A DNA stretch of 35,877 nucleotides. Origin: a virus. Its lineage: Duplodnaviria > Heunggongvirae > Uroviricota > Caudoviricetes. The notes below the pieces were generated by a model. The model saw nothing but the letters and a program-made list of their open reading frames with translations. It did no database searches and was not told the DNA's origin. Positions 8,830 through 35,877 of the stretch are shown piece by piece; the first letter of the stretch is position 1; each line of letters begins with the position of its first letter. The DNA lies in IMG/VR virus record IMGVR_UViG_3300029888_000103, one strand, 5' to 3'. A program made the position numbers and the translations under genes.

Positions 8830-10002
8830 TTACGCGCTGACCTGGCTGGCGAAATTCACCAGGTACTGATCGGTGATGCGCTGACGCAGCATCAGATTTT
8901 CAAGTGGCGGCACTGGCGTGTAGTCGTAGTCGATCGTGAGTTTCCCGGCTTTCAGCGTGTCTTTGTCGTTCACCGACTCGTCCAGCCAGCAATCACCACC
9001 AATGAGATACCCCTGACTGACCAGGCTGCGCATTTTGGCGCGGATACCTTCGATAATGTCGCGAGCCAGCGACGGATTCAGCGGTTTGTCCACCGCCCAC
9101 ATGTGCGCTTCTGCCATCGTGTCCGTCAGTACCTGCGCGGTTCGGGTGTAGTTTTCGAAGGCAAAGAGCGGATCATCGCTCAGACAGCGGGAACCCCAGA
9201 AGCGGAAACCGTCTTTGCGGATAAGCGTGGTAACGTCGTTCTGGTTAAGCAGACCTGCATCGGTTGCCGGGTCCTGCAGATCCCAGAACACATCAGCAGA
9301 AATTCCGGTGACACCGTTCACGCCCACGTTGGACAGGCTTTTGTGCCATCCGGTCTGCTCATCAATTTTGGCGCGCAGACCGAGCGCACGGGCGGTGGCA
9401 TATGCCGTTGCTTCGGCATTCAGCACCGTGTCCCAGCCCGTAAAGTCAGGCCAGATCAGCATCCCTTCGCGCTGGCTGAAGTTTTCACGGTAAGAGATCG
9501 CCTCCTGTACCGTCTTGCAGCCATACGCTGACAGGTAAGCAAACCCACGCAGGCTTTGCGCCACGCTCAGCAACTCAGTCGCAACGGCTTTGTTATCGTG
9601 GCCTGGCACGCCGAGAATGCGCGGTTTAACGCCGAGCTGTGACTGGGCAGATAACAGGGCTTTCATACCTGTTTTTTTACCTTCAGCAGTCACTGCGCCG
9701 ATGATATTGGTCGTGGTTTCGTCTTCCGTTTCACCCTGCGGCACACGCACAACAACGGTCACGGGTTTTGCCTGGTCAGCGATGGCATCCAGCGAACGGG
9801 CCAGAGTACCGGACTCACCCGCTTTACCGCTGGCAGTCAGCACATCAGTGATCAGCACGGGTTTATTAAGAGGAAACATTTTTGCATCGGCATCATCGCC
9901 CGTGCAGACCATACCCACGATGGCGGTGCTCACCGTGGTAATGGATCGGGTGCCTTCGTTGACTTCAACAACGCGCACCCCGTGGTGGTAATCCTGAGCC
10001 AT
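8830..10002 (-). CDS. FI: contractile tail sheath protein gpFI
   Basis: 390-aa ORF; first gene of the FI-FII-E-T-U-D operon; length and position fit P2 gpFI. Confidence 0.9.
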
Positions 10003-10078
10003 AGTGGCGAACCTCCTGATTGGATTAGGCTTCGCCCTATGTTGAAGTGATTGTGCCTGACAAACAGCTAAGCGCAGT

Positions 10079-10096
10079 TGTACCGTTATTCATACA
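10079..10096. promoter_or_regulatory. late-promoter activator site (TGT-N12-ACA) upstream of FI
   Basis: TGTaccgttattcatACA read directly, centred about 86 bp upstream of the FI ATG. Confidence 0.55.
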
Positions 10097-10144
10097 AAAT
10101 GACGGTATTTGTCTGCTTGCAGGGATAATCAACATAATGCTGAT

Positions 10145-10717
10145 TCAGGGGAATTCATTGCTCTTATTTGCCGGAAATTTTCTATAAATTGTGGAAACAC
10201 CTACATCAAAAATCAGTGCAATACGCTGTCTTGATTCTCCGGCCTCGAGTAAACGTCCAATCTGTGCCCACTGTTCGGTGGTCAACTTAGGACGGCGTCC
10301 ACCTACTCTGCCTTTGGCGCGAGCTGCAGCCAGCCCCGCCCTGGTACGTTCAACTATCAGTTCGCGCTCCATTTCAGCCAGGGCCCCCATGACATGAAAA
10401 AAGAAACGGCCCATTGGGGTACTGGTATCAATACTGTCAGTCAGGCTTCGGAAATTCACGCCACGCTGGCGCAGCTCTTCTATCAGCGTAACGAGATGCC
10501 GCATACTGCGCCCCAACCTGTCCAGCTTCCAGACAACCAGAGTGTCACCTGCCGATAGTGTCCTGAGTAGTTTTTTCAGCCCCGGTCTGTCGGACTTAGT
10601 GCCACTGATTTTGTCCTCAAAAATCCGCTCACATCCCGCGCAGTTCAGTGCATTACGTTGCAAATCGGTGTTCTGGTCATTTGTTGACACGCGTACATAG
10701 CCAATAAGCATGATCAT
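10145..10717 (-). CDS. serine DNA invertase (Hin/Gin/Pin family)
   Basis: N-terminal catalytic motif IGYVRVSTNDQ with the resolvase-family serine, and a C-terminal HTH (GVSTIYRKF); 190 aa; lies directly beside an invertible tail-fibre segment. Confidence 0.9.
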   Translation of the reverse strand: MIMLIGYVRVSTNDQNTDLQRNALNCAGCERIFEDKISGTKSDRPGLKKLLRTLSAGDTLVVWKLDRLGRSMRHLVTLIEELRQRGVNFRSLTDSIDTSTPMGRFFFHVMGALAEMERELIVERTRAGLAAARAKGRVGGRRPKLTTEQWAQIGRLLEAGESRQRIALIFDVGVSTIYRKFPANKSNEFP

Positions 10718-10738
10718 CCCCCTGAATAAAAACCGGAG

Positions 10739-11260
10739 ATGATGCCAGTTAGCTGTTACCTCTGCATTTTCTTAAACGTTGGTTTGGGAGAAGGCTCTGC
10801 ATTACCTGTTGGTGTGCCTGTTCCATGGCCTTCAGCCACACCGCCAACAGGCTGGCTGAAATGCAACGGTGCGGCTTTTTCTGCTGAAGAATACCCGGAA
10901 CTGGCAAAGGCTTATCCGACAAATAAATTGCCTGATTTACGTGGTGAGTTTATTCGTGGCTGGGATGACGGGCGCGGTATTGATGCAGGACGTGTTTTAT
11001 TGAGCATTCAGACAGGGATGCTGGAAAAACACCGCCATATTGTTGTTGCCAATGATGGTTACGACACAAAAGATGAATGGGAACTGGCTACGATTTTCAA
11101 AAAGACATACACACAAGGACGGGGACTTGATGCCACAAATACAGGAGGGAGTCTGATCCCATCACCGACACTTCATTCACGAGGGAGTATCGGTAATACT
11201 GGCGGGAGTGAAACCCGTCCACGAAATATTGCATTTAACTATATCGTGAGGGCTGCATAA
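10739..11260 (+). CDS. silent alternative tail-fibre C-terminal exon (joins H only after inversion)
   Basis: ORF continues through the crossover site; encodes LGLGEGSALPVG... and a tail-collar-like segment (AAFSAEEYPELAKAYPTNKLPDLRGEFIRGWDDGRGID). The GLGE junction matches the gpH sequence at the other crossover site. The part upstream of the crossover site (about 10795) is not expected to be translated. Confidence 0.6.
   Translation: MMPVSCYLCIFLNVGLGEGSALPVGVPVPWPSATPPTGWLKCNGAAFSAEEYPELAKAYPTNKLPDLRGEFIRGWDDGRGIDAGRVLLSIQTGMLEKHRHIVVANDGYDTKDEWELATIFKKTYTQGRGLDATNTGGSLIPSPTLHSRGSIGNTGGSETRPRNIAFNYIVRAA
10767..10794. repeat. invertase crossover site (left), pix/gix-like
   Basis: ttttcttaaacgttggtttgggagaagg; its reverse complement shares the core TTCTCCCAAACCAA with the site at 12607-12636. 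Confidence 0.7.
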
Positions 11261-11862
11261 TGGATAACGCCGTATTAAATAGCGAGCTTATTGCCACGAA
11301 GGCGGGGAATATTACCGTCTATAACTATGATGATAAAACTCGGGAATATATTTCTACTTCAAATGAATATCTTGCCATTGGTGTCGGTATCCCAGCATAT
11401 TCCTGTCTGGATGAACCTGGTATACATAAGGCGGGTTATGCTATCTGCCGTTCGATGGATTTAAACTCATGGGAATATGTGCCAGACCATCGCGGTGAAA
11501 TCGTCTATAACACCGAAACGGGAGACGCCAAAGAAATCACAGCTCCGGGTGATTATCCTGAAAATACAACCACTATCGCCCCGTTAACGCCATTCGATAA
11601 ATGGGATGGTAAGAAATGGGTGACCGATACTGAGGCACAGCATAGCGCCGCAGTAGACGCGGCAGAAGTACAGCGTCAGTCACTGATTAATACTGCAATG
11701 GCTTCCATCAGTCTGATTCAACTTAAATTGCAGGCCGGGCGGCAGCTGATGCAGGCAGAGACCACCCGACTTAACACTGTGCTGGATTACATTGACGCGG
11801 TGACGGCAACAGATACCAGCACAGCGCCGGATGTCATCTGGCCTGAACTGCCGGAGGCGTAG
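11260..11862 (+). CDS. alternative tail-fibre assembly chaperone (for the silent fibre tip)
   Basis: 200-aa ORF directly coupled to the alternative fibre exon; its C-terminal region is similar to the active-orientation gpG (…PELPEA versus …PTPPAV endings). Confidence 0.65.
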   Translation: MDNAVLNSELIATKAGNITVYNYDDKTREYISTSNEYLAIGVGIPAYSCLDEPGIHKAGYAICRSMDLNSWEYVPDHRGEIVYNTETGDAKEITAPGDYPENTTTIAPLTPFDKWDGKKWVTDTEAQHSAAVDAAEVQRQSLINTAMASISLIQLKLQAGRQLMQAETTRLNTVLDYIDAVTATDTSTAPDVIWPELPEA

Positions 11863-12271
11863 GCCATTCAATATCTGGCCCACTGGAGGTATCAACCAGC
11901 TCCAGTGCGTCCAGGTAATCCAGCCACAAATTATATTGCGCCAGTTCCTCGTCTTTCAGACGACCAATAGCGGCTTTACCGGGCCATTGTTTACTGTTCA
12001 TGTATTCGTTGGCCAGATTAAGCAATAATTGCCTTTCTGATTCTGCCTGTTGAATAAGTTCTTCATGTGATGGTGGAGGTATTAGTGCCCATGTGGGTAA
12101 TCCATTTTCTCCTGCAACACGAATTTTGCCATCTGGGGGCGTATTTATTGCAAATTCATTATAAACATCATCACTGACAGCCAGAGCATCATCTGGCCAT
12201 GAATTTGCATTAATGTAATCATCCTTAAGTGCAGGATTCACAAAAATGTTTAAAGATGGACTATAAAACAT
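11834..12271 (-). CDS. G: tail-fibre assembly protein gpG (active orientation)
   Basis: 145-aa ORF immediately downstream of H inside the invertible segment. Confidence 0.8.
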   Translation of the reverse strand: MFYSPSLNIFVNPALKDDYINANSWPDDALAVSDDVYNEFAINTPPDGKIRVAGENGLPTWALIPPPSHEELIQQAESERQLLLNLANEYMNSKQWPGKAAIGRLKDEELAQYNLWLDYLDALELVDTSSGPDIEWPTPPAVQAR

Positions 12272-12272
12272 A

Positions 12273-13670
12273 TTACACCCCTATAGCGATATAACGACCA
12301 AATACAGCGTTTGCAGCAGTCGCTATGCTTGAAAAACCGCGGAACTGATTTGATGTAATTGCAGAAGCCGACAGGATTCCTGCGCCTGAAGGTGTATACC
12401 CCACATGACTAACTATCACCCCATAACATGCTGACGGAAAGGCAAAAGGAAAATCATTAAGATATCCGGCATCTTCACCACCAGACCCACCAAATCTCGC
12501 CTGCCCCCACTGAATAATCAGTGTTCTCCGGGAACCTGAAATAATTAACGGAATCGTTACATACCCATTCAGACCAATGACACCCGATGCAGTGCCAGCC
12601 AGAGATAATTCTCCCAAACCAAGGTATGTGAGAAGACCAGCTACATCTTTTCCACTCAAATTGGTAAGCGTATTGTCCAGCGGTTGTTTACCTGCCAGCG
12701 CATTAAGCATTGTCGTGGCAAAGTTCGGATCATTCCCCAGTGCCGCCGCCAGTTCGTTCAGTGTATCCAGTGCAGCAGGTGCAGAACCCACCATTCCTGC
12801 AATCGCCGATTTCACAAAAGCCGTAGTGGCAATCTGTGTATTGTTGACCGACTGCGCCGCCGTGGGGGCTGTTGGCGTTCCGGTGAGTGCCGGACTCGAC
12901 AACGGTGCTTTTAGTGCCAGCGCATTGTTAATGGTGGTACTGAAATTCGGATCATTGTTAATGGCTGCGGCTATTTCTTTCAGCGTGTCCAGCGTGGCTG
13001 GCGCACCATTAATAAGGGCCGTCAGTGCCGCCTGTACAAACGCAGTGGTCGCAACCTGCGTGGTATTATTCCCCGCCGCTGGCGTTGGCGCTTTGGGGGT
13101 TCCGGTAAATGTCGGGCTGGCTTTTGGCGCGTACTGTGAATGAGGGTCCTGTGCAGCAAGATGTTTTGCCATCAGGTCATCCACGTACACCTTCAGCTCC
13201 AGTACCTTGTCATCCACATACTTGCGGGTTGCCAGCACTACAGCAGGGTCGATTTTCAGGGTGATATTGTCCGTACTGCTGGTAATCAGCACCATGCGCA
13301 CGGTCTGGGTGCGCCCGCTGCCTTCAGCCAGTTGCGGCTTATAGCTTTCCGGGCAGTTGCCCACGGCAATCAATGCCCCGGACTCATCAAACAGGCCCAC
13401 TTCACGTATCCACCAACCGCCCTCGTTTTCAGGGATCACCTGTTCAGCAATAATCTGGCTGCTATTCTGCGGGTCGATATAAAGCATATTCAGCGCAGCC
13501 CGGCGTTTCTCATTTACCAGTGCCGTCTGCTTTGCGTCCGGCGTTGGCAATACTCCGCCGCCATCGCCCACCGCCATATGGGTAATTTTTAGCGGCACAC
13601 CGAGCGCGGCGGCGCTGGCAAGTTTCGCCGCGCCAATATCCGTCAGCAGGGTATAAAATTTTGTGCTCAT
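12273..13670 (-). CDS. H: tail fibre protein gpH (constant N-terminal part plus currently expressed variable C-terminus)
   Basis: 465 aa; repetitive Ala/Thr/Gly-rich fibre sequence; crossover site at about residue 345 separates constant and invertible parts. Confidence 0.88.
   Translation of the reverse strand: MSTKFYTLLTDIGAAKLASAAALGVPLKITHMAVGDGGGVLPTPDAKQTALVNEKRRAALNMLYIDPQNSSQIIAEQVIPENEGGWWIREVGLFDESGALIAVGNCPESYKPQLAEGSGRTQTVRMVLITSSTDNITLKIDPAVVLATRKYVDDKVLELKVYVDDLMAKHLAAQDPHSQYAPKASPTFTGTPKAPTPAAGNNTTQVATTAFVQAALTALINGAPATLDTLKEIAAAINNDPNFSTTINNALALKAPLSSPALTGTPTAPTAAQSVNNTQIATTAFVKSAIAGMVGSAPAALDTLNELAAALGNDPNFATTMLNALAGKQPLDNTLTNLSGKDVAGLLTYLGLGELSLAGTASGVIGLNGYVTIPLIISGSRRTLIIQWGQARFGGSGGEDAGYLNDFPFAFPSACYGVIVSHVGYTPSGAGILSASAITSNQFRGFSSIATAANAVFGRYIAIGV
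12607..12636. repeat. invertase crossover site (right), inside gene H
   Basis: aattctcccaaaccaaggtatgtgagaaga; inverted relative to the 10767-10794 site; encodes LTYLGLGEL in gpH. Confidence 0.7.
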
Positions 13671-14272
13671 GGATTCACTCTCATTGTGTCAATAACATGG
13701 ACCGCCCCGCCTTCATGCGCGGTGCCACCGGAAATAATCGTTTCGTTGATATACGGATAGATCGTGATTTCTTCGCCAAGATAGCTGGCGGCTCCCACCC
13801 AATGCGGGCCGCTGGTCTGCAGATTGATGGACATGCCGATCATGTGGCGGCTACATGGTTTGGCATCGCTTATCAGTCGCTCAAGTTCCAGATAGGTATC
13901 TTCAGTGATGCCCTGGTCCTGCACGCCGATATCCAGGCGAAACGTGCCCGGTGCCTCTCCGGTCTGCCACCACTCAATAATGCGGATCAGAAAGCCGAAC
14001 GGCTCCACCACCCGCCGCACGGCACTGGTGGTCCCTTTATGCTGATGAATATAAAAAGCATCCTTCACCACCTGGCGCTTGACGCTTTCTGTCCAGCCCT
14101 CGTCCCAGCGATCCACAGAGAACGCCCAGGCGAGATAAGGCAGGAAACTGACCGGACAGGTTGCCGGATTCCACAAGTCACGAAGCGGCACCTGCAGATC
14201 AGAAATCCCGCTGCAGGTTTGCGCCAGTCGGCGCTCCAGTGGTGTTGAACCCGGTGGCAGCAGACTATTCAT
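13667..14272 (-). CDS. I: baseplate protein gpI
   Basis: 201 aa; position between J and H, with overlapping start/stop codons. Confidence 0.85.
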   Translation of the reverse strand: MNSLLPPGSTPLERRLAQTCSGISDLQVPLRDLWNPATCPVSFLPYLAWAFSVDRWDEGWTESVKRQVVKDAFYIHQHKGTTSAVRRVVEPFGFLIRIIEWWQTGEAPGTFRLDIGVQDQGITEDTYLELERLISDAKPCSRHMIGMSINLQTSGPHWVGAASYLGEEITIYPYINETIISGGTAHEGGAVHVIDTMRVNP

Positions 14273-15173
14273 CCGTTCCTCCGTTGGTTACGCTCCACTG
14301 CGTACATGATGCCGCCTGTGTTTTGTTCAGGACCACATCCGCCAGAGGAGAAGCCAGCTCCACACGCTGCACCCCCTCAACATGCAGGGCGGCAAAGATG
14401 GCGCTACGGCGAATATCCCGACCAAGACGCGTCTGACTGGCGATGTACTTCTGCAGGCTGGCTTTTGCCGCTGCCATTACCGGCTCTGCTTCCGGTCCAG
14501 GATAGAGAAAAATGGTGGCTTCCACGCGATACGGGATGATTTCTGCGCTGCGAACCGTAAGACGGTCAGCCACCGGGCGGACGTTCTCACTGTTCAGAGC
14601 TTTTTCCACCACGTCCAGCAGGTCTTTTTCTGCGGTTCCATCGCCTTCGCGGCTAAGGACAGTCAGCACCACCTCTGCAGGTGCCGGGCTGGTTGCACTG
14701 GCATCCGCCACCCGACCGTCGGCGCTTCGGGCATGAAATTCATAAGCTGCAGTTGGCCCCGCAACAGAAAGCCCTTCAAAAGCTGCAGGCACACGCAGGC
14801 GTAACGCTTCATCGCTTTCCATCACAGCTGCAACGGACGGCACAGCGTCATTATCAGCAGGCGTCACCGTCAGGCGTTTCACGTTGTAGTTGGCAGCGAG
14901 CTGGTCAAGATCGCTGCCCATCGCGTAAGCCACCATCACAGCCTGCGCGGCTTCGTTAATGCGCTGGCGCAGAAGCAACTCACGGTAAGCGTTCTCCTGC
15001 AGCAATTTGGTGACGGGTTCAGATTCCAGTTCCAGCGTGCGGATCGCTGCTTCCTGCTCATCTTTCGGATGAAGCGCAACAAATTCGGCCTTGCGTTCGG
15101 CAAGCAGCGTCTCAAAGTCCGGCACATCCACAATCTGCGGCGCAGGCAACTGCGAAAGGTCAATCACTGCCAT
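14265..15173 (-). CDS. J: baseplate wedge protein gpJ
   Basis: About 302 aa from the ATG at 15173 (MAVIDLSQL...); the ORF-track start at 15212 is a GTG that overlaps W. Length matches P2 gpJ. Confidence 0.85.
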   Translation of the reverse strand: MAVIDLSQLPAPQIVDVPDFETLLAERKAEFVALHPKDEQEAAIRTLELESEPVTKLLQENAYRELLLRQRINEAAQAVMVAYAMGSDLDQLAANYNVKRLTVTPADNDAVPSVAAVMESDEALRLRVPAAFEGLSVAGPTAAYEFHARSADGRVADASATSPAPAEVVLTVLSREGDGTAEKDLLDVVEKALNSENVRPVADRLTVRSAEIIPYRVEATIFLYPGPEAEPVMAAAKASLQKYIASQTRLGRDIRRSAIFAALHVEGVQRVELASPLADVVLNKTQAASCTQWSVTNGGTDE

Positions 15174-15519
15174 TCTCTGCTCCTGTTGATACGGAAAGGG
15201 AAACAGGCACACCGTTATTACGCCGCCCGCTCAGCGCCACCACCATTGAACCGTCAAAATTGCTGTTGATGGTGATGGAATCCAGCGCCATCCGTGGCTC
15301 CCAGCGACTCAGCGCCACATACACTGCCGACATGACCTGCAGGCGTAATGCCGGATTTTGTGGCTGGTCTATTAGCGACGACAGCAGGGAACCATATTCA
15401 CGACGAGCAATGCGGCTACCCTGCGGTGTCAGCAGAATGTCCCGCACCGACTGGCGCAGATGATCAATATCAGTAATGATTTTGCCGCTGGTATTGTTCA
15501 TCCCGCTATAAAGCGTCAT
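15160..15519 (-). CDS. W: baseplate protein gpW (GPW/gp25 family)
   Basis: 119 aa; position between V and J. Confidence 0.85.
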   Translation of the reverse strand: MTLYSGMNNTSGKIITDIDHLRQSVRDILLTPQGSRIARREYGSLLSSLIDQPQNPALRLQVMSAVYVALSRWEPRMALDSITINSNFDGSMVVALSGRRNNGVPVSLSVSTGAENGSD

Positions 15520-24955: not shown

Positions 24956-25243
24956 TTTAACAAGTGTGCCCCATACCGAGTCTTCAACCTCTTCAACAAC
25001 AATATTGATGTTGCAAATAACATGGTCTTCACTTACTCGAGTATATCTGAATAACCTTGATTTCACTTTCCCACCAAACGACTCACGGTCTTTATTGTTG
25101 GTAATGTCGACATAATCCCCAACATTCGGAAGCATCAGGAGTGGATTGTCTTCCGAAGAACATCTTACAATCTCTCCATCATCAAGAGGTCGCGTATCCC
25201 CTTTACGTAAGTATTGAAAGTCATAGTTGTATATGGTTTTCAT
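24950..25243 (-). CDS. hypothetical 97-aa protein (cargo between cos and Q)
   Basis: ATG with an AGGA Shine-Dalgarno sequence; AT-rich ORF with no recognisable motif; convergent with Q. Confidence 0.5.
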   Translation of the reverse strand: MKTIYNYDFQYLRKGDTRPLDDGEIVRCSSEDNPLLMLPNVGDYVDITNNKDRESFGGKVKSRLFRYTRVSEDHVICNINIVVEEVEDSVWGTLVKE

Positions 25244-25419
25244 TGTCTATCCTTTTGAAATTAACATCGCTGACGTATGTTGTTTCACAGTTCCATTTCC
25301 ACATTAAGTCAATGAAATCAACATCATTTAATGTGTGCCAATATAGTGCAACACGATCCCGAAAACTTCAAATCAATCTCTCCAATACGCGGGATTATTA
25401 CTTTTTCGCCCCGTTACGC

Positions 25420-25445
25420 GCGCTCGTATCCCCGCCACGCCTGCC
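25420..25445 (-). other. probable cohesive-end (cos) site
   Basis: Minus strand reads GGCGTGGCGGGGATACGAG; its first 13 nt match my recollection of the 186/P2 19-nt cohesive end (GGCGTGGCGGGGAAAGCAT / GGCGAGGCGGGGAAAGCAC); lies in the 370-bp non-coding gap on the Q side of the accessory locus, the expected place. Confidence 0.5.
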
Positions 25446-25613
25446 CGCTTTATGTAGTGGTTTTCATGCGCCTGCATGACATAAGCAAAGGCCCGCCATT
25501 CCTAGCGGGCCTCAGCTAAAACGATCCTCAAACGATCATGCGGATTCATGCGGCATAGTCATGCACTTGTGTGGTTACGAAGGAATATAGTTGCGAAAAT
25601 CGATTAAAATGCC

Positions 25614-26486
25614 TTAAGCTCTCTTAATCAACCCCTTATGCGTTGCTTTGGTAAGATAAGCTAATTCTTTAGGCCCCTTATCTCTAAAGCCCACCCATTC
25701 TGGTTGGAATTTTATAAAACTTGGAATTGCGGTTGCCAAGGCTGTAACCATACCGGGAATAATACCGCCTGAATCACCAGCAATAGCAGCATGGTACAAC
25801 GGTTTTAAAAATTCCATAACCTGCCCACCATCTACTTCTGGATTAACTTTGACTCCCATTCTGATAGGATTTCTCCATTTCCCTTCGATAGCTTTATCAA
25901 GATTAACTACAGCCTCTTGTAATAAAGAAAAATTTTTAGCCCTCGTTAGATTAGGGTCTCTAGAATAAAGGACTTCAGTATACAGTTTTTCTAAGTACTC
26001 ATGTAACGCATTAAGATCATCCTGACAATCATCTTTAAAACGTAATATATCTTCTATATGAGCATCTTTATCAGGAATTCTCAGAACATTAAACAACTCC
26101 AATCTCAACTGAAGGGCCGTTTTCTGTTCTTTATCATATATTAAATTCTCCCCTGTTTGATGAAAGTGCCAATAAGTAGCAGGCTCGTTCTTCCTGAATT
26201 CATCCAATGTCTGCAACTGAAATTCCGTATATAAAAATGGAAAGTCTTGGATATTCAGCATACCATCATGTTTCATAATAGGTCTACGTAATACCCCATT
26301 ATCTAATAATTCTTTTTCTTTAGGCACAATCGAGTGAATATTTTCACTATCTAGAATAACCACATCATCCCAGTAAAAGCAGAAATAATTAATATCCTGC
26401 TCAGTTAAACCTGCCCCAAGATAGACCGTACTATTATTTCTATGAAAACTCATTTCATTAGGATTAGCTACAATGCCACGTTTCAT
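25614..26486 (-). CDS. uncharacterised 290-aa protein in the old/tin-equivalent accessory slot
   Basis: ATG at 26486 with a strong AAGGAG Shine-Dalgarno sequence (the ORF-track start at 26510 is a GTG); AT-rich; hydrophobic C-terminal segment (DSGGIIPGMVTALATAIPSFI); no motif I can assign. Confidence 0.6.
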   Translation of the reverse strand: MKRGIVANPNEMSFHRNNSTVYLGAGLTEQDINYFCFYWDDVVILDSENIHSIVPKEKELLDNGVLRRPIMKHDGMLNIQDFPFLYTEFQLQTLDEFRKNEPATYWHFHQTGENLIYDKEQKTALQLRLELFNVLRIPDKDAHIEDILRFKDDCQDDLNALHEYLEKLYTEVLYSRDPNLTRAKNFSLLQEAVVNLDKAIEGKWRNPIRMGVKVNPEVDGGQVMEFLKPLYHAAIAGDSGGIIPGMVTALATAIPSFIKFQPEWVGFRDKGPKELAYLTKATHKGLIKRA

Positions 26487-26697
26487 TCTTGCTCCTTGAT
26501 AAGCATACACATTTTAAGAATGACATATATTCTAATAATTTCAATACATTATGAGTTATAACTAAAAGTGCAGCATAGGTCTCGCCCTGATAGATAATCA
26601 AGTGATTACTGTCTTTTTACTTATGGTTAACGCCTCTCAAGGCTCGCGGTTCAACCTTGCTGACGCCAGAAGCAGGTTCAGACGCCAGCAACGTTTC

Positions 26698-26931
26698 TTA
26701 ATGCAACCAGCTGTCGTCTTCCCACACCTTCTGCATAATTTTCATCACTTGTTTTCTTTCTTCGTCCAGTTGCAATCCGGTAAGTTCCACACCGTTAGAG
26801 CTACCTTTGCGGATACGAATTACCGTTTTGGGATACAGGGGGCGCAGATTGCGGTAAAGCTCGGATTCAAGGGCGTCCAGTGTAGACTGGCTAATCTTCT
26901 GCTCTTTATCGATCATTATTTCAATGCGCAT
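26698..26931 (-). CDS. DinI-family protein (Tum C-terminal-like)
   Basis: 77 aa from MRIEIMIDKEQKISQSTLDALESELYRNLRPLYPKTVIRIRKGSSNGVELTG...WEDDSWLH, which parallels E. coli DinI (MRIEVTIAK...); GAGGTG Shine-Dalgarno sequence before the ATG at 26931. Confidence 0.75.
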   Translation of the reverse strand: MRIEIMIDKEQKISQSTLDALESELYRNLRPLYPKTVIRIRKGSSNGVELTGLQLDEERKQVMKIMQKVWEDDSWLH

Positions 26932-26941
26932 AAAAGTCACC

Positions 26942-27130
26942 TCAGCTGATGACATCCATTGAGCGGTTGTATTCGTGGGTTCTGATTTTTGCCATGAGTT
27001 CATCTGTCAGTTCAGAAACCCACTGCAGAGCCAGCCCCTTCTCTTCATCACTACACTCACTAGCCGCTACAAGCTTAAGAAAAAAATCAATGCGCTGGAG
27101 CTTCAAAGACTCCAAAAAATAGTCCTGCAT
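26942..27130 (-). CDS. small ORF (62 aa), possible N-terminal part of a Tum-like antirepressor
   Basis: ATG at 27130 preceded by AGGAGGAAAG; a LexA box lies 40-60 bp upstream; its 3' end overlaps the DinI-like frame. Confidence 0.5.
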   Translation of the reverse strand: MQDYFLESLKLQRIDFFLKLVAASECSDEEKGLALQWVSELTDELMAKIRTHEYNRSMDVIS

Positions 27131-27282: not shown

Positions 27283-29697
27283 TTAATACAGGTTTCGCCA
27301 CTTATCATCTTCCTGCAAACGCTGGTTCCGATAGAAGATACGCAGGCCTGCTCCTGACGGAATACTGCCGCCGCGAAGGAGTAAATCGACCTCTTTCTCG
27401 CTGCCATCAAATCCCCTGGACTTCAGTTCATACACGAGCTGCAGTCGCTGATGGTCTGTAATTCGCTGTTTGTAGTCTTTACGCCGTTTCGGTTTCACCA
27501 GGCGTAACCTTGCTGCCAGTTCCCGGCGCTCTTTTTTGCTCATACTGTGCAGGTAATCGTGCAACTCCTTGTCATCCATGCGGGTGATATCCGTTCTGGT
27601 ATCTCCATCAGCTGATTTGTCTTTCCCTTGTTGGTACAAATTTTCAGCAAGGGGACAGTTATTGCCACGAGTCCAAGGGGCGCAAGCGCCCTGGTCGGCT
27701 GCCGCCTCCTGAACGTCAACGGCCTTACGAACCATTTTCCACTTCACTGCATGAGTGCAGATCTTGCCCTCTGCAATGGGTGACCAGATGCCATAAATAC
27801 GAATACCGTGATCGCCATAGGCGGTTGGCTCTTCGTTGATTTCATAAGCGGTTCTGATGAGGTGATATTTGCGGGGAACCAGTACGCCGCCCTGCTTCAT
27901 GATGTAGGTGGCAAAACAACCAGCATCAGCAGCAGCCAGAATGGCATCAAGACGCGGGTTATCCAGTACCGGCGCACCTGCTTTTTTGTCACCCTGTTGC
28001 CTTGCCGCCTGACCAGCCAGCAAGCGAAGTTCACGGTAAGCCTGACGTCCCGGAATACCAAAGAAGCGGAATTGCTGAACACGATGCAGAGACGCCCAGG
28101 CATTAACGTATTCAGCGTTATCACGCAGGGATTTACCCGTTTCCTTGCTGATCTCGCCAGCCAGACCACGCCCGTCAATGTTCTTACTGATGTATTTCGC
28201 GATGTAGCTTGTCGGCGTTCCTTTGCGCGGGTTTATCAGCTCAGATTTAAAGCGTGGACCAGTGTTATTACCCAGTTCCTCGCGGTCTTCACGGATGGCA
28301 AACTTACGCAACAATGCAGTAATGGCGCGGCGGTCTTTTTTGCGCATGAAACACAACAGGTGCCAGTGAACTGTACCGTCATGATGCGGCTCAGCCACCC
28401 GCACGCCATACCAGCGCAACCCGGCTTTGTGCATCGCCTTACGAAATGCAGCAAACATGCCGACCAGATAATCGCTGCTTTGTCTTACCGTCGCATTTGT
28501 CCAGGTTGGGTTTGGTCTGCCGTTATTGAGCGTGGAATGGAAACGTGACGGACAGGTAATGGTGTAGAAAACGGCGCAGTCACCGCGCATTTCCGCGATA
28601 AGCTCCAGACCTTTAACACAGGCCATCATCTCATTGCGGCGGTGCGCCGGGTTGCTGCTGCTGGCGTTTACCACGTCTTCCATATCCAGCGTGTCGCCCT
28701 CTTCGTTCACCAGTTCATGAGAACGGAAAAACTCCAGTGACTTGCGGCGCTGCTCACGTTTATGCATCACGGCTTCATAGCTGACATAGGGAGATGCTTT
28801 TTTGCTGACCAGGCAGACAGCACGCAACTGCTCTTCCCGCCATTCGCAACGCATTTTCCATAATTTCCGGTACCACCAGTCGGCGCACAACATACGCGCC
28901 AGCGAACCCGGAATGAGTTCATAGGGCACGGGTTTACGGCGGTTTCTTTTCCGACGGAGTTGCTCAAACGCAGGCGGGATGACATCCAGACGCAGGGTTT
29001 CCGCTGCCACCTTTTCCCATGTCTTGCGGATTTCTTCTGGCTTAACGTCATCGGTGGCATACAAATCACCACAAGCTGCATCAAGGCACATGCTCATATG
29101 CGCAGCGACAAGGGTAGACAGGCGTTTCACCTGATCCTGACTCATTTCAGGCAGAATCAGCAGGCCGTCCAGCCCTACATGGCTTGCCATAAAACGAAAA
29201 GATGCAGATAGCTGGCTGTCGCGTACATGCTCCAGTCGTTCCAGACATGGCTTAATCGTCTCACGTAAATAGCGGGAATAAGCCTTTGGCCTGCCCAGGC
29301 TGCTGAAGTATTCAATACGTTGCATCAGCGGCTTGCTGATATGGGAGGGCTGGGCGCTGACGTCTGCCAGAATGACCATGTCCGGGTTAAAACGCTGCTG
29401 CTCATGCGCCAACTTTGCCCGGCTAATGAGCTTATCCTGCTCTATTTCGCGTTGGACAGGATCACGGGATTCATTAAAGAAATAACGCTCCCAGACCTGA
29501 TCACTCAGTGCCTCGCGGCGCAGTTGTTCCTGCTCGTTATCGGCAGCGTACAGAGTGATCAGGTTTGAAAGCGCAGAAACCGGCGCAACTTCCGCCGGGT
29601 CCAGATAAGGGTTAATGGCCTTTTTCGGGCTGTTCCATGAGAACGATGCGGCAGCCTCGTTAAAGCCGCAGCAGTTGCTCATATCGGCATGGCTCAT
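27283..29697 (-). CDS. A: replication initiation protein gpA (rolling-circle initiator family)
   Basis: 804-aa ORF in the gpA position of the early operon; start overlaps the stop of the upstream methylase gene. Confidence 0.88.
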
Positions 29698-30551
29698 GCA
29701 CGTACTCCGTACACGGCAGAACTATCCACGCCACGCGAATAATCAAATCCCACCCAGCAGCGCGGCCCGGAAACAGCAATGATTTCTGTTGCTGATTTAC
29801 TCTCACCAGCTGCTACGCCGATGCTGCGTTTTACCTTGATATAGTGGTGAGTAAAATTGCGATACAGCGAACGGATCAGGGATGTGTCACTGTTAGAAAC
29901 AATGACCGGATGTCCTTCTGATGACCGATGTTCAAGAACGGATGCCAGGTGATACTGGTCATCTTCAGTAAAGCCGTCAGCGTGATAGCCGGAAAACGTA
30001 CCGTCATAAGGCGGATCGCAATACACCACATCCCCCGCCTTCAACATCGCCAGCGTTTCATCAAAGCTGGCGCAGATAAACGTTGCTCGCTGGGCTTTTT
30101 CTGCAAAAGCGCGAATTTCTTTTTCAGGGAAATACGGATTTTTATAATTACCGTAGGGAATGTTGAAATGCCCGCTCTTGTTATAGCGACATAACCCACG
30201 GTAACCGTGACGATTGAGATACAGGAAATATACCGCTTTCATGAAATCAGTAATTTCAGTTGAGTAATTAAACTCCTGCCTTATGTTGTAATAAGCCACC
30301 TCCCTGTTTGCGATCTCAAATAAAACTTTGGCGCGAGATATAAACGATTCACAATCAGCGGCAACCTTTTTATAGAGGTTGATTAAATCAGGATTAATAT
30401 CCGCAACCAGATAGCAGGGATAATCCGTCTCCATCATCACAGCACAGGAACCCGCGAAAGGTTCAACTAGTCGCGGACCAGCAGGAAGATGTTTTTTCAG
30501 TTCGGACATTACGGCGGTTTTATTTCCCGCCCATTTCAAGATGGTGCTCAT
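29694..30551 (-). CDS. DNA N6-adenine methyltransferase (Dam-like)
   Basis: DPPY catalytic motif ([10 protein letters not shown]) and N-terminal AdoMet-binding region (LKWAGNK...EPFAGSCAV); ATG at 30551 with a GGAGGTG Shine-Dalgarno sequence. Confidence 0.85.
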
Positions 30552-30775
30552 ACAGCACCTCCGTTGTAATGTTTGCCTTTCAGCTCTGCGATTTCCTGAC
30601 ATGTAATGCAAAGCTGCACACCCGGAATGGCACGGCGGCGTGCTGGCGGAATTGGCGCTTCACACTCAACGCAAAGCACGCGGGACACGCCCGGCGTTTT
30701 GGCACGGGCAGCACGGATATGGCGCTGGCGTTCTTCTTCAACGCGCTGCTGTACGAGATCCATTGCATCAGCCAT
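30548..30775 (-). CDS. TraR/DksA-family C4 zinc-finger protein
   Basis: 75 aa with CxxC...CxxC (CVECEAPIP...CITCQE); 4-nt overlap with the methylase start. Confidence 0.72.
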   Translation of the reverse strand: MADAMDLVQQRVEEERQRHIRAARAKTPGVSRVLCVECEAPIPPARRRAIPGVQLCITCQEIAELKGKHYNGGAV

Positions 30776-32400: not shown

Positions 32401-32472
32401 AAGTACCCAAATGGGGACAAAATTGATACTAGGATCGCAAAAGAGATATGTCAACATCAAAGTACCCAAATG
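32401..32472. promoter_or_regulatory. direct repeats in the immunity switch region (candidate operator elements)
   Basis: AAGTACCCAAATG occurs twice (32401-32413 and 32460-32472), 59 bp apart, flanking the candidate promoter. Confidence 0.4.
32426..32454 (-). promoter_or_regulatory. candidate early lytic promoter (pR-like)
   Basis: Minus strand reads TTGACA-17 nt-TAGTAT; the -35 overlaps the cI start codon, so a bound repressor or polymerase here would couple the two transcription units. Confidence 0.5.
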
Positions 32473-33044
32473 AGATCAAAATAAATCCCAATAAAGGTGG
32501 TAAGGCTGCGATTGAGCGATTAGTCGAAGCTTATGGCTTTACGACACGACAGGCTTTAGCTGATCACTTGGAAGTATCAAAAAGCACTCTGGCGAACAGG
32601 TATTTGCGGGATACGTTTCCTGCAGACTGGATAATCCAATGTGCTCTTGAAACAGGAACCTCACTGAAATGGTTAACCACCGGGCAAGGCCTTAAGCAAA
32701 GCTCGCTGACAGCAGCTACAGAAGAGCTTGCCAAGTTTCGCCTTACCGCAGGCAAAATGATTGAAGATGGTTCATATGTCTTCGATTCATCATTTCTTCC
32801 TGCAAATCTTTCATCACCAATTGTTATTCAGGATGGGCTCGTCACATACATTTGTGATCAAAAATTTTCTGAAGTACTTGATGGGCACTGGTTAATCAAC
32901 ATCGACGGAACCTATTCCATTCGAAAAATCACAAAGCTTCCAAAAGGTATGATTAAAATTACAAGTACAGAGAATAGCTTTGAATGTGCATTTTCTGATA
33001 TTGAAGTAGTTGCTTGTATAAGAAGTACAATAGTTTCAAATTAA
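32448..33044 (+). CDS. cI: CI immunity repressor (186 type)
   Basis: 198 aa; N-terminal HTH region (…AIERLVEAYGFTTRQALADHLEVSKSTLANRY…ALETGTSLKWLTTGQG) and a C-terminal domain, like 186 CI in length and organisation. Confidence 0.85.
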   Translation: MSTSKYPNEIKINPNKGGKAAIERLVEAYGFTTRQALADHLEVSKSTLANRYLRDTFPADWIIQCALETGTSLKWLTTGQGLKQSSLTAATEELAKFRLTAGKMIEDGSYVFDSSFLPANLSSPIVIQDGLVTYICDQKFSEVLDGHWLINIDGTYSIRKITKLPKGMIKITSTENSFECAFSDIEVVACIRSTIVSN

Positions 33045-33064: not shown

Positions 33065-34741
33065 ATGAATTCATTTTCCATCGTTATATTCTTATTAGCA
33101 TTTCTCGCCCCCATTCTAGCTGTAATATTATTTAAGCAAAGCAAAAAACATAAAGCGGCTATAAATACCTTGACAGCTAACAACATAGCCCTTTCCAACC
33201 AACTGAAAGAAAATCAAGAAGAATTAGCACAGACTGTACGAGAACTATCAGAGCTTGAAGGACGAGCTGCGCCATTATGGCAATACGTAGAATTGCACAG
33301 CGCAGTGATGGAAGCAGAGAATAAGATAAAAAATGCAGACTCAATAGCCAGGCAAAAAATAGAAGAAGCCCAAATAAAGGCTGCTAAGACAGTAAACGAA
33401 GCAAATTATCAAGCTCAGATAAAAATAAGCAACGCTAATAGCGAAGCTATAGCAATTACTAAAGACGCTCGCGATGCACGCCTGAAAGCTAAAGAACGTC
33501 TTGATAATGCCAATAGTAAAGCAAATGAGCTGATCTCAAATGCTAATGACAATGCAGTGAAAATTATTTCCGATGCAGAAGAAAGAGCAAAAGAGATTGC
33601 TGGTTCAGCATATGAAGCTAAAGAGTTTGCAGAAAAATATGAAGCAGTTGCCAAATCAATGAAAAATAAAATTGAAGGTTATGGTGATGAATGGATCATC
33701 CCTAACCGTAGCGTTCTCGATGAATTGGCAGAAAATTATGAGTTTACAGATGCAGGTAAGGAATTACAAAAAGCCAGGGAGTTAACAAAATCATTAATAA
33801 AAACTAATAAAGCTGCTTCGTGTGATTATGTTGAACAAAACAGGCGTAATACTGCTATCAACTTTGTTTTAGATGCCTTCAATGGAAGAGTTGACAGTAT
33901 TTTATCAAAAGTCAAACACAACAATTTTGGAAAACTTTCCCAAGAGATAAAAGATGCGTTTCAACTTGTAAATTACAATGGTTCTGCCTTTAGGTCCGCA
34001 AAAATAAGTGACATCTATCTTCAAGCTCGACTCAACGAGCTAAAATGGGGAGTTGCAGTTAATGAAATTATGCTCGAAGAAAAAGAAGAGCAAAGAAGGA
34101 TTAAAGAACAACTTCGTGAAGAGGAAAGAGCTCGTAGGGAGTATGAAAAAGCGATAAAAGAAGCTGAAAAAGAAGAGAAAGCTATTCAGCAAGCTATAAA
34201 TAAAGCAACAAAAGAGCTTATGCTTGCAAATGAAGAACAACGCTTAGCTTTAGAGCAAAAAATAGCTGAACTACAGTTAAAATATGAAGAAGCTGAAGCT
34301 AAAAACCAACGAGCTATTTCTATGGCTCAACAAACTAGATCAGGCCACGTTTATATAATTAGTAATATTGGCTCATTTGGCGAAGATGTATATAAAATTG
34401 GAATGACACGCCGCCTTGAACCACTTGATCGTGTTCGTGAACTCGGTGATGCTAGTGTTCCTTTTTCGTTCGATGTTCATGCGATGATTTATAGTGATGA
34501 TGCACCATCATTAGAAAATCATCTGCATAAAGTCTTCAACGAAAAACAGGTCAATAAAATTAACTCACGAAAAGAGTTTTTCAACGTAAATATTAAAGAA
34601 ATTAAGTCTGTTATTGAAGATATGAACATCAACGCACAATGGACAATGTTTGCGGAAGCGAAAGAATATAGAGAGTCACTGGCGATTGAGCAAGAGCGCA
34701 AAGCAGCAACTTCCGCCAACGATGAACTGCATGTTGCTTAG
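33065..34741 (+). CDS. membrane-anchored coiled-coil protein with DUF4041-like and T5orf172/GIY-YIG-like C-terminal module (cargo)
   Basis: 558 aa; N-terminal TM helix (FSIVIFLLAFLAPILAVILF), about 250 aa of A/K/E/N/Q-rich heptad-like sequence, and a C-terminal region GHVYIISN...VYKIGMTRRLEPLDRVRELG...FDVHAMIYSDDAPSLENHLHKVF that I recognise as T5orf172-like; AAGGA Shine-Dalgarno sequence; 20 bp after the cI stop. Confidence 0.8.
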   Translation: MNSFSIVIFLLAFLAPILAVILFKQSKKHKAAINTLTANNIALSNQLKENQEELAQTVRELSELEGRAAPLWQYVELHSAVMEAENKIKNADSIARQKIEEAQIKAAKTVNEANYQAQIKISNANSEAIAITKDARDARLKAKERLDNANSKANELISNANDNAVKIISDAEERAKEIAGSAYEAKEFAEKYEAVAKSMKNKIEGYGDEWIIPNRSVLDELAENYEFTDAGKELQKARELTKSLIKTNKAASCDYVEQNRRNTAINFVLDAFNGRVDSILSKVKHNNFGKLSQEIKDAFQLVNYNGSAFRSAKISDIYLQARLNELKWGVAVNEIMLEEKEEQRRIKEQLREEERARREYEKAIKEAEKEEKAIQQAINKATKELMLANEEQRLALEQKIAELQLKYEEAEAKNQRAISMAQQTRSGHVYIISNIGSFGEDVYKIGMTRRLEPLDRVRELGDASVPFSFDVHAMIYSDDAPSLENHLHKVFNEKQVNKINSRKEFFNVNIKEIKSVIEDMNINAQWTMFAEAKEYRESLAIEQERKAATSANDELHVA

Positions 34742-34824: not shown

Positions 34825-35877
34825 ATGGCAGTACGAAAACTCACCACAGGAAAATGGCTTTGCGAATGTTACCCCGCCGGACGTAGTGGACGTCGTGTGC
34901 GTAAACAATTCGCCACCAAAGGCGAAGCTCTGGCTTTTGAGCGTCACACGATGGAAGAAACCGAAGCAAAGCCCTGGCTGGGTGAATCAGTGGATCGTCG
35001 AACACTGAAAGACGTGGTTGAACTATGGTTCAAACTACATGGTAAATCTCTGACAGCTGGGCAGCATGTCTATGACAAATTGCTGTTGATGGTTGACGCT
35101 CTGGGCAATCCTCTTGCAACCGATCTCACCTCTAAAATGTTTGCCCACTATCGAGATAAACGCCTGACAGGCGAGATCTACTTCAGCGAGAAATGGAAGA
35201 AAGGAGCAAGCCCGGTCACCATTAACCTGGAGCAAAGCTATCTAAGTAGTGTTTTTAGCGAACTATCCCGTCTGGGCGAATGGTCGTATCCGAACCCACT
35301 GGAGAACATGCGAAAATTCACCATCGCAGAAAAAGAGATGGCATGGCTTACCCATGAGCAGATTGTTGAATTGCTGGCTGATTGCAAACGTCAGGACCCA
35401 ATTCTGGCACTGGTAGTTAAGATATGCTTAAGCACAGGCGCACGCTGGCGTGAAGCCGTAAATCTTACTCGCTCACAGGTGACCAAATACCGAATTACCT
35501 TTGTCAGAACGAAGGGGAAGAAAAACAGAAGCATCCCTATCAGTAAAGAGCTTTACGAAGAGATCATGGCGCTTGATGGGTTCAATTTCTTCACAGACTG
35601 CTATTTTCAATTTTTATCCGTGATGGAAAAAACGTCTATCGTGCTCCCTCGCGGTCAACTCACACACGTTCTGCGCCATACGTTTGCGGCGCACTTCATG
35701 ATGTCGGGTGGAAACATTCTGGCCTTACAAAAAATTCTCGGACACCACGATATAAAAATGACTATGCGTTACGCACATCTGGCACCGGATCATCTGGAAA
35801 CGGCGCTCCGTTTCAATCCTCTGGCAACGCTGCCAAGTGGCGACAAAGTGGCGGCAGCGGTTGGCATTACCCCGTAA
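34825..35877 (+). CDS. int: tyrosine integrase (P2/186 Int family)
   Basis: 350 aa; N-terminal MAVRKLTTGKWLCECYP...KQFATKGEALAFERHT parallels P2 Int (MAIKKLDDGRYEVDIRPTG...KFDKKSEAVAFEKYT); C-terminal catalytic region with ARWREA..., HVLRHTFAAHFMMSGG and RYAHL motifs; the stop codon is the last triplet of the window. Confidence 0.92.
   Translation: MAVRKLTTGKWLCECYPAGRSGRRVRKQFATKGEALAFERHTMEETEAKPWLGESVDRRTLKDVVELWFKLHGKSLTAGQHVYDKLLLMVDALGNPLATDLTSKMFAHYRDKRLTGEIYFSEKWKKGASPVTINLEQSYLSSVFSELSRLGEWSYPNPLENMRKFTIAEKEMAWLTHEQIVELLADCKRQDPILALVVKICLSTGARWREAVNLTRSQVTKYRITFVRTKGKKNRSIPISKELYEEIMALDGFNFFTDCYFQFLSVMEKTSIVLPRGQLTHVLRHTFAAHFMMSGGNILALQKILGHHDIKMTMRYAHLAPDHLETALRFNPLATLPSGDKVAAAVGITP

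Follow-up and report, generated by a model that had tools for sequence, protein, structure and literature searches.

A Probable Pin/Gin-Type Invertible Segment Exchanging Tail-Fibre Tip and Chaperone at the fun(Z) Position of a P2-Like Phage

Known Invertible Fibre Segments and Their Likeness to This Locus

In phages Mu and P1, the G segment with its invertase Gin and the C segment with its invertase Cin supply a constant fibre N-terminus with either of two alternative C-termini, each followed by its own chaperone, while the invertase gene lies just outside the segment and carries an enhancer within it. The P-segment of the e14 element in E. coli K-12 (stfP-tfaP and tfaE-stfE, with pinE) is a further case. 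Among P2-like prophages, the locus of EPEC E2348/69 was found in both orientations within clonal cultures, by sequencing and by PCR (PMC4272514, Table S1), and invertases and fibre swapping in the fun(Z) hotspot have already been noted (bioRxiv 10.1101/2024.10.15.618418). The arrangement described here is therefore already documented for P2-like prophages (PMC4272514; bioRxiv 10.1101/2024.10.15.618418); near-identical modules (97-98%) are present in public genomes in both orientations, and the locus is nothing new in kind.

The window, by which we mean the whole 35,877-nt stretch of DNA analysed, shows the synteny J-I-H-G ... FI-FII-E-T-U-D when compared with P2, with a P2-like (Peduoviridae) fibre module. 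As an earlier note on this DNA had proposed, the module occupies the place of the P2 Z/fun locus, between the equivalent of the fibre chaperone gene G and the sheath gene FI. P2, in contrast, has an unrelated T5-exclusion gene at that hotspot and a fixed fibre tip. We consider it very likely that the module is a Pin/Gin-type invertible switch that exchanges fibre tip and chaperone together, depends on Fis and an enhancer, and provides host-range bet-hedging.

The likeness to e14 is close. The two share a 14-nt inner site sequence, TTCTCCCAAACCAA, and a gene order in which a gp53-like tip and its short Tfa face a collar tip and its 200-aa TfaE; in both, the two Tfa genes overlap tail to tail by 29 bp and the variable parts begin at a GLGE junction. 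At the DNA level, pinE, tfaE, and the 5′ portion of stfE are 84-87% identical to the window. However, e14 belongs to the lambdoid elements, is defective, and has a fibre gene that is truncated, whereas the P2-like prophage of the window is apparently complete and has the module grafted onto an H-type P2 fibre of full length; identity between its gp53-like tip and the C-terminus of StfP falls to 38%. The EPEC E2348/69 locus and related peduoviruses (phage 500465-1, Cartapus, and pro483) resemble the window in the position of the module beside FI, in the proximal crossover site, and in the types of cassette. In EPEC E2348/69 the gene order is also the same, but the prophage is a truncated one, and its invertase reaches only 77% identity. 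Phage 500465-1 (Wadgaonvirus) has flanks 97-98.6% identical to those of the window, with the collar tip placed for expression; its second cassette is a different one. The Mu G segment is more distant: it is 3 kb long with longer variable parts, and its gix sites (TTATCCAAAACCTC...) differ from those in the window. Neither H tip in the window, the collar tip included, has similarity to Mu S or S′; the tips are e14-like and not Mu-like.

Crossover Sites and the Fibre Genes They Join

The longest inverted repeat within positions 9000-14500 has its arms at 10767-10792 and 12609-12634 (26 nt, 81% complementary, 1,816 nt between arms). These arms are two pix/hix-type sites of 26 bp in inverted orientation, enclosing a segment of 1,844 bp (10779-12622). 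The invertase-proximal site (10767-10792) reads TTCTCCCAAACC AA CGTTTAAGAAAA on the minus strand, with its core at 10779-10780, and the distal site, within H (12609-12634), reads TTCTCCCAAACC AA GGTATGTGAGAA, with its core at 12621-12622. Both carry TTCTCCCAAACC and the AA that follows it exactly, such that central dinucleotide and inner half-sites are identical. The earlier note had placed a pair of inverted crossover sites at 10767-10794 and 12607-12636, bounding a segment of about 1.8 kb; the pair and the segment length hold, while the exact ends do not, the true 26-mers ending up to 2 nt away. Its Pin/Gin-type reading of the segment agrees with the e14 pix sites, which match at 25 of 26 positions (proximal site against proximal site) and at 20 of 26, with an identical 14-nt inner part. 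The proximal site is identical to that of EPEC E2348/69.

The exact 14-mer occurs twice in the 35.9-kb window, at 10779-10792 on the minus strand and at 12609-12622 on the plus strand. With up to two mismatches allowed, 0.23 matches are expected by chance, and at least two were obtained in only 3 of 100 shuffles. A search of the whole window with up to three mismatches found no third crossover site. Multi-site inversion of the shufflon type, as in p15B Min or in another EPEC P2-like locus with three repeats, is rejected, since even at three mismatches there are only two 14-mer matches in the window.

H encodes a tail fibre of 465 aa (12273-13670, minus strand) with a Phage_tail_fib N-terminus and a Gp53-like_C domain. 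Its constant part (12623-13670, minus strand; 349 aa) is a P2 H-type N-terminus (Phage_tail_fib PF12571, 5.4e-65) and is collinear in all relatives, whichever way the segment lies. The variable C-terminus in the present orientation (12273-12620, minus strand) is a gp53-like tip of 116 aa counted from GLGE (Gp53-like_C PF21882, 1.9e-11, H residues 384-464), and is followed by a Tfa chaperone of 145 aa (11834-12271, minus strand; Caudo_TAP, 2.4e-33). On the opposite strand lie a silent alternative C-terminus, a tail-collar-type tip of 159 aa from GLGE (10781-11260, plus strand; Pfam Collar PF07484, 1.2e-15) with 62% identity to e14 StfE, and its paired TfaE-like chaperone of 200 aa (11260-11862, plus strand; Caudo_TAP, 3.4e-31), the gene for which has 87.5% DNA identity to e14 tfaE. 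That each tip has an assembly chaperone of its own, as had been suggested, is borne out by the Caudo_TAP domain in both. What is labelled “phage tail protein” at 10739-11260 is a fragment and does not stand as a gene of its own.

Flipping the segment in silico joins the 349 constant residues in frame to the collar tip at the Leu-GLGE junction, giving an H of 509 aa followed by the 200-aa Tfa. The earlier note had predicted exactly this alternative fusion, and 509 aa is also the length of the annotated H (1,530 nt) in L004, a naturally flipped relative; in L004, as in the relative L001, the collar tip is joined to the constant part of H. The coding capacity of H thus amounts to two proteins, of 465 and 509 aa.

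Recombination of the two 26-bp sites would be carried out by the adjacent invertase, a member of the Fis/enhancer-dependent Pin/Gin/Cin/Hin family, through staggered cuts at the identical central AA/TT dinucleotide, and would invert 10779-12622. Because the distal site lies inside H, inversion would keep the first 349 residues and swap everything past the Leu preceding GLGE. The present orientation would yield the gp53-like tip and then the 145-aa Tfa; the other, the collar tip and then the TfaE-like chaperone. Expression would be limited to the tip and chaperone facing the late V-W-J-I-H operon. Low-rate switching in a lysogen would mean that an induced burst holds particles with two different receptor-binding tips, each presumably directed at a different receptor, which could act as host-range bet-hedging; the host-range consequence is suggested by the analogous systems of Mu, P1, and carotovoricin. 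A lysate from a lysogen should on this reasoning mix two receptor specificities, a point of relevance to predicting host range and to engineering with such peduoviruses or their fibres.

The Invertase and Its Predicted Enhancer

The gene for a Pin-family serine DNA invertase (10145-10711, minus strand; 188 aa from an MLIGY start, with an alternative ORF start at 10717) sits 55 bp outside the segment, in agreement with the earlier note. The protein has a Resolvase domain (PF00239, 2.3e-53, residues 5-137) and an HTH_7 domain (PF02796, 1.5e-15, residues 140-183), shares 85% identity with e14 PinE and 74% with Mu Gin, and finds its best solved structure in Gin (3UJ3, E 9e-93, residues 1-184). Alignment with PinE and Gin showed conservation of S9, the catalytic serine, and of R7, D64, R65, R68, and H106. 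In Hin, K47, K/R48, K/R51, Q151, R154, and L155 contact Fis and enhancer DNA (PMC3798978). The equivalents K46, K47, R50, Q150, R153, and L154 are all present in this invertase, at a numbering offset from Hin of -1 set by the Ser10/Ser9 register. Judged by its size (about 190 aa), domains, catalytic set, and contact residues, the protein would belong with the Fis/enhancer-dependent invertases Hin, Gin, Cin, and Pin. A PADLOC scan returned no match for it, and it is therefore not classed as a defence component.

In the 5′ part of an invertase gene of this type, a Fis enhancer is expected as a pair of Fis sites at a spacing of 48 bp. The predicted enhancer lies at 10627-10689 (minus strand) inside the invertase gene and consists of two Fis-like 15-mers with centres 48 bp apart, TGTCAACAAATGACC at 10675-10689 and GCGCGGGATGTGAGC at 10627-10641 (both minus strand). 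In a synonymous-site alignment of 67 distinct Pin-like genes, anchored on the GYxRVS motif, normalised synonymous diversity fell below 0.3 only at codons 9-12, 25, and 26 (nt 25-36 and 73-78), besides codon 4 (0.29). The two lowest four-codon windows were 9-12 and 24-27 (permutation p ≤ 5e-5). These patches are about 47-48 bp apart and coincide with the two 15-mers; the predicted enhancer is under constraint at the DNA level, and switching probably depends on Fis.

We also considered that the locus might be a frozen relic, with the invertible architecture retained but switching lost here through an unexpressed invertase or a subtly defective site, and with the collar tip and its chaperone as dead cargo. 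A promoter scan of the region upstream of the invertase yielded no consensus sigma-70 promoter, G stands in place of the A of the family majority at one constrained position of the second Fis-like 15-mer, and the distal site has an outer half (GGTATGTGAGAA) that deviates from the A-tract consensus. Moreover, EPEC shows that such modules can persist in truncated prophages. On the other hand, that truncated EPEC prophage still switches (PMC4272514), and in the window all four fibre and chaperone ORFs and the invertase are intact and free of frameshifts, as are the catalytic and Fis-contact residues. The same two sites, including the deviating outer half, occur exactly in relatives of both orientations (L004 and L090 flipped, L005 unflipped), and a one-base variant of that half-site is found in the prophages L091 and L092. 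A relic is thus improbable, and the switch probably operates in the window’s own strain. We claim no terminator after the fibre operon, since the hairpin at 10731-10750 (minus strand) is a weak one and terminators are no more numerous than in shuffles.

Orientations and Cassettes Among Relatives

Both orientations of the segment exist in nature. At a coverage of at least 80%, 65 complete E. coli genomes contain the unflipped sequence and 91 contain the in-silico flipped one, in collinear form; the best E. coli match is 98.0% over 3.8 kb. In total, 3,044 E. coli genomes matched, at roughly 6,000 homologous places. Homology with flipped relatives stops at both crossover sites, and in L004 it reverses exactly there. 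The earlier note had regarded a single orientation, together with damage around the catalytic serine, as evidence against a working switch; in close relatives both orientations occur, and here the catalytic residues are intact. Whichever orientation a reference genome shows is an arbitrary snapshot.

In principle, the two orientations among genomes could have arisen by homologous recombination or by horizontal replacement of fibre cassettes, rather than by the invertase. Such events would account for segment identity being decoupled from flank identity, and for L090 and L001, which have flanks 99.8% identical and different cassettes. However, over 15.8 kb L091 and L092, which come from unrelated strains, are 99.9-100% identical and differ solely by a clean inversion of the segment, which is itself 100% identical and without other rearrangement. 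Breakpoints fall within the 26-bp sites, and RecA-dependent inversion, to be efficient, needs an inverted repeat longer than 14 bp. Furthermore, heterogeneity within cultures has been shown for e14 and EPEC P2-like loci with the same repeat (PMC4272514). As the source of the orientations, recombination or replacement is highly improbable, and inversion by the invertase is the reading we retain.

In 20 of 80 genome loci, the contig breaks off at or near the proximal site, 63-130 nt upstream of where the invertase starts. As a sign of mixed orientation these ends are ambiguous, since the collapse of several invertase gene copies into one could also produce them; a 716-nt contig with 3x coverage (L009) may represent such a collapsed copy.

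Only one feature of the locus might repay study at population scale, namely the pattern of cassette exchange at the crossover sites. Pairwise segment and flank identities, computed with blastn, are uncorrelated across eight loci, and this decoupling indicates that cassette exchange does occur. We tentatively raise the possibility, which we hold to be rather unlikely, that the segment, or each half of it (a tip with its chaperone), is a mobile cassette exchanged at shared crossover sites between co-resident e14-like, Mu-like, and P2-like prophages, perhaps by invertases acting in trans. The pattern is consistent with site-specific exchange, with homologous exchange, and with a selective filter by which only cassettes that start at a site are functional. 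Between the window and L004, the segment is 99.9% identical (two mismatches in 1,844 bp) and the flanks about 96%, with divergence of about 4% resuming within 6 bp of one site and within 14 bp of the other. Between L090 and L001, divergence begins at the first base past the 14-nt shared part of the site.

A fibre module at the place of fun(Z)

The P2-type late genes lie on the minus strand in P2 order, from V and W at the upstream end of the run, through J (14265-15212), I (13667-14272) and a 465-aa H (12273-13670) that joins a P2 H-type N-terminal domain (PF12571) to a Gp53-like C-terminal domain, to a 145-aa Caudo_TAP chaperone (11834-12271). Between this chaperone and the FI sheath gene (8830-10002, minus, followed by FII tube, tape measure, U and D) are a tail-collar open frame (PF07484; 10739-11260, plus), a second Caudo_TAP chaperone of 200 aa (11260-11862, plus) and a resolvase-type recombinase of 188 or 190 aa (10145-10711 or 10145-10717, minus). 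In P2, a terminator and an oppositely oriented fun(Z) separate H and G from FI; an earlier note, which placed the module at the P2 Z/fun locus, was therefore correct on its position.

The same note had claimed an inverted pair of crossover sites, and a repeat search bears this out. The longest inverted pair in the region is 10767-10792 and 12609-12634 (26 nt, 81% complementary), and the exact 14-mer TTCTCCCAAACCAA, present once on each strand in this pair, occurs nowhere else in the 35.9-kb window even with three mismatches allowed (0.23 hits expected by chance with at most two). Read as hix-type sites, the proximal one (10767-10792), adjoining the invertase, is TTCTCCCAAACC-AA-CGTTTAAGAAAA and the distal one (12609-12634), within H, is TTCTCCCAAACC-AA-GGTATGTGAGAA; inner half-sites and central dinucleotide are the same, and the outer halves are unlike. 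The distal site occupies the codons for L-T-Y-L-G-L-G-E, its core dinucleotide forming positions 2-3 of the Leu codon preceding GLGE, while in the silent collar frame the core forms positions 2-3 of a Val codon, followed by an identical GLGE. In-silico inversion of 10779-12622 therefore joins the constant 349 residues to the collar tip in an unbroken H of 509 aa, with the 200-aa chaperone directly next, which supports the proposed alternative H fused at GLGE to a second tip with its own chaperone.

The convergent chaperone genes share 29 bp tail to tail (11834-11862), so both C-termini (ending VIWPELPEA and DIEWPTPPAVQAR, each before a stop codon) are encoded by the same DNA. The tfaP and tfaE genes of e14 are annotated with the same 29-bp overlap, as are those of every relative examined, and it may act as an internal junction for half-segment exchange. 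A weak terminator-like hairpin with a trailing TTTATT (10731-10750, minus) separates the proximal site from the start of the invertase gene and could block transcription arriving from the late operon whichever way the segment lies; the region, however, holds no more terminator-like sites than shuffled sequence does.

The recombinase and its predicted enhancer

The recombinase shares 85% identity with e14 PinE and 74% with Mu Gin, and its closest solved structure is Gin (3UJ3, E 9e-93). An alignment with PinE and Gin shows no change at the catalytic S9, R7, D64, R65 and R68, and H106 is also wild type. Hin residues K47, K/R48, K/R51, Q151, R154 and L155 are conserved only in Fis/enhancer-dependent invertases (McLean et al., PMC3798978), and the expected counterparts K46, K47, R50, Q150, R153 and L154 are all present here, with Hin numbering shifted by -1 on the Ser10/Ser9 register; this shift and the Fis consensus follow PMC3798978 and general background on the family. 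A promoter scan found no invertase promoter.

From 80 Pin-like loci gathered from Enterobacterales genomes, 67 distinct invertase genes were codon-aligned. Mean normalised synonymous diversity was 0.81, and values under 0.3 were confined to codon 4 (0.29) and codons 9-12, 25 and 26. The two lowest 4-codon windows were codons 9-12 and 24-27 (nt 25-36 and 70-81; best window p = 5e-5, with 0 of 20,000 permutations giving both), about 47-48 bp apart centre to centre. Coinciding with these patches are two Fis-like 15-mers, TGTCAACAAATGACC (10675-10689) and GCGCGGGATGTGAGC (10627-10641), whose centres are exactly 48 bp apart, the spacing known from the Hin enhancer (Johnson, Glasgow and Simon, 1987, as cited in PMC3798978). 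The pattern is a constraint on the DNA itself, over and above its coding role, where the enhancer is expected to lie; the 15-mers are predicted Fis sites.

Orientation and relationship to known switches

The arrangement follows the classical logic of Mu G, P1 C and e14 P. The pinE, stfE and tfaE genes of e14 match, at 84-87% DNA identity, those for the invertase, the collar tip (5′ part) and the 200-aa chaperone; StfE is 62% identical to the collar tip, and the StfP C-terminus 38% identical to the gp53-like tip. Neither tip resembles Mu S or S', and the Mu gix sites differ from the present sites and from the e14 pix sites of K-12 (TTCTCCCAAACCAACGTTTATGAAAA and TTCTCCCAAACCAAGGTTTTCGAGAG). The simple locus of EPEC E2348/69 (2977580-2979467) has an identical proximal site, a 77% identical invertase and the gene order seen here (collar tip, Tfa-200, Tfa-146, gp53-like tip, invertase, FI). 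The module is of the Pin type, grafted onto a P2-type fibre. The fun(Z) hotspot often has a DNA invertase, with adjacent genes inverted and tail fibre and assembly genes swapped (bioRxiv 10.1101/2024.10.15.618418), the invertible fibre locus of P2-like prophages has experimental coverage (PMC4272514), and invertase and paired chaperones are already annotated in public phage records; a fibre switch at the P2-like fun(Z) hotspot is therefore already known.

Both orientations occur in natural relatives. Positions 9900-13700 were found at ≥80% coverage in 65 complete E. coli genomes as they stand and in 91 when flipped in silico, several of the latter as single collinear pieces at 97% identity. 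Relative to the window, E. coli NMBU-W12E19 (L004) is collinear to 10792, reversed over 10779-12625 and collinear again from 12609, and its annotated H of 1,530 nt encodes exactly the predicted 509 aa. Over 15.8 kb, the prophages of strains BS15R-A (L091; human, Switzerland) and YZLc4-1 (L092; chicken, China) match at 99.9-100% identity, and only a clean inversion of a 1,874-bp segment, bounded by sites of the same type as here, sets them apart. Phage 500465-1 (Peduoviridae, Wadgaonvirus), with flanks 97-98.6% identical to those of the window, has the collar tip in the expressed position. Goldberg et al., using PCR and paired-end sequencing, detected both orientations within clonal cultures for e14 and for two loci in P2-like prophages of EPEC E2348/69 (PMC4272514).

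The two sites, an intact enzyme, the reading frames and a chaperone matched to each tip are thus in place, and near-identical relatives show both orientations. By analogy with Hin and Gin, invertase dimers at the two sites and Fis at the enhancer would form an invertasome on supercoiled DNA, followed by cutting at the 2-bp core and, after the subunits rotate by 180 degrees, religation. The tip and chaperone turned towards the late operon promoter, upstream of V, would be the pair expressed; lysogens would form mixed populations, so that induced phage would carry either tip.

In 20 of the 80 draft-genome loci (L009, L015, L019, L021, L025, L029, L033, L036, L038, L041, L042, L051, L063-L065, L071-L073, L075 and L088), the contig stops at or near the proximal site, 63-130 nt upstream of the start codon of the invertase gene, which suggests assembly breaks from mixed orientation or from collapsed multi-copy invertase genes. 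Two homologous E. coli loci, H58 (NZ_CP047277.1) and H70 (NZ_CP060065.1), are interrupted by annotated IS elements (IS421-family and IS1A, respectively). One Trabulsiella odontotermitis contig (NZ_JNGH01000101.1, 152493-166244; L014 and L030) has two Pin-like invertase genes about 5 kb apart, with several crossover-like sites, direct and inverted, between them, and looks like a multi-site, shufflon-like arrangement.

Possible cassette exchange and other cargo

Judged from identity profiles, the segment behaves as an exchangeable cassette. Compared with L004, it has 2 mismatches in 1,844 positions inside and about 4% difference outside, the nearest outside mismatches (10761 and 12648) lying 6 and 14 bp from the sites. 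L090 and L001, two homologous loci, have 99.8% identical flanks and invertase-side cassettes that are unrelated from the first base past the shared 14-mer. Segment and flank identity are uncorrelated across eight loci; for the window, L004, L001, L005 and L090 the figures are, for example, 99.9% in the segment versus 96% in the flanks, or 90% versus 99.8%, with discontinuities within about 15 bp of the crossover sites. The pattern is consistent with site-specific recombination between prophages at the shared sites, a version that we regard as rather unlikely, and equally with homologous exchange plus a functional filter.

Elsewhere in the prophage, a 558-aa protein (DUF4041 plus T5orf172/MUG113; 33065-34741, plus) matches the PADLOC PD-Lambda-1 model (E 4e-120). 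Its gene, flanked by a CI-type repressor gene (32448-33044) and the window's final ORF (34825-35877), is a predicted anti-phage defence gene at a known P2-like hotspot. At the old/tin-equivalent hotspot (25141-26949), between portal-side genes and replication gene A (27283-29697), a 298-aa DUF6236 protein (25614-26510, minus) has a small ORF on either side; these two have no Pfam or PADLOC match, so the interval is a candidate uncharacterised cargo or defence island. A D12-class N6-adenine DNA methyltransferase (Dam-like, PF02086, 9e-75; 29694-30611, minus) is encoded directly downstream of gene A. The left flank (288-2620) consists of host genes for a YbjM-family protein (288-665, minus) and a YbjL-type Asp-Al_Ex/TrkA_C permease (935-2620), and the prophage therefore sits in an Escherichia-like chromosome.
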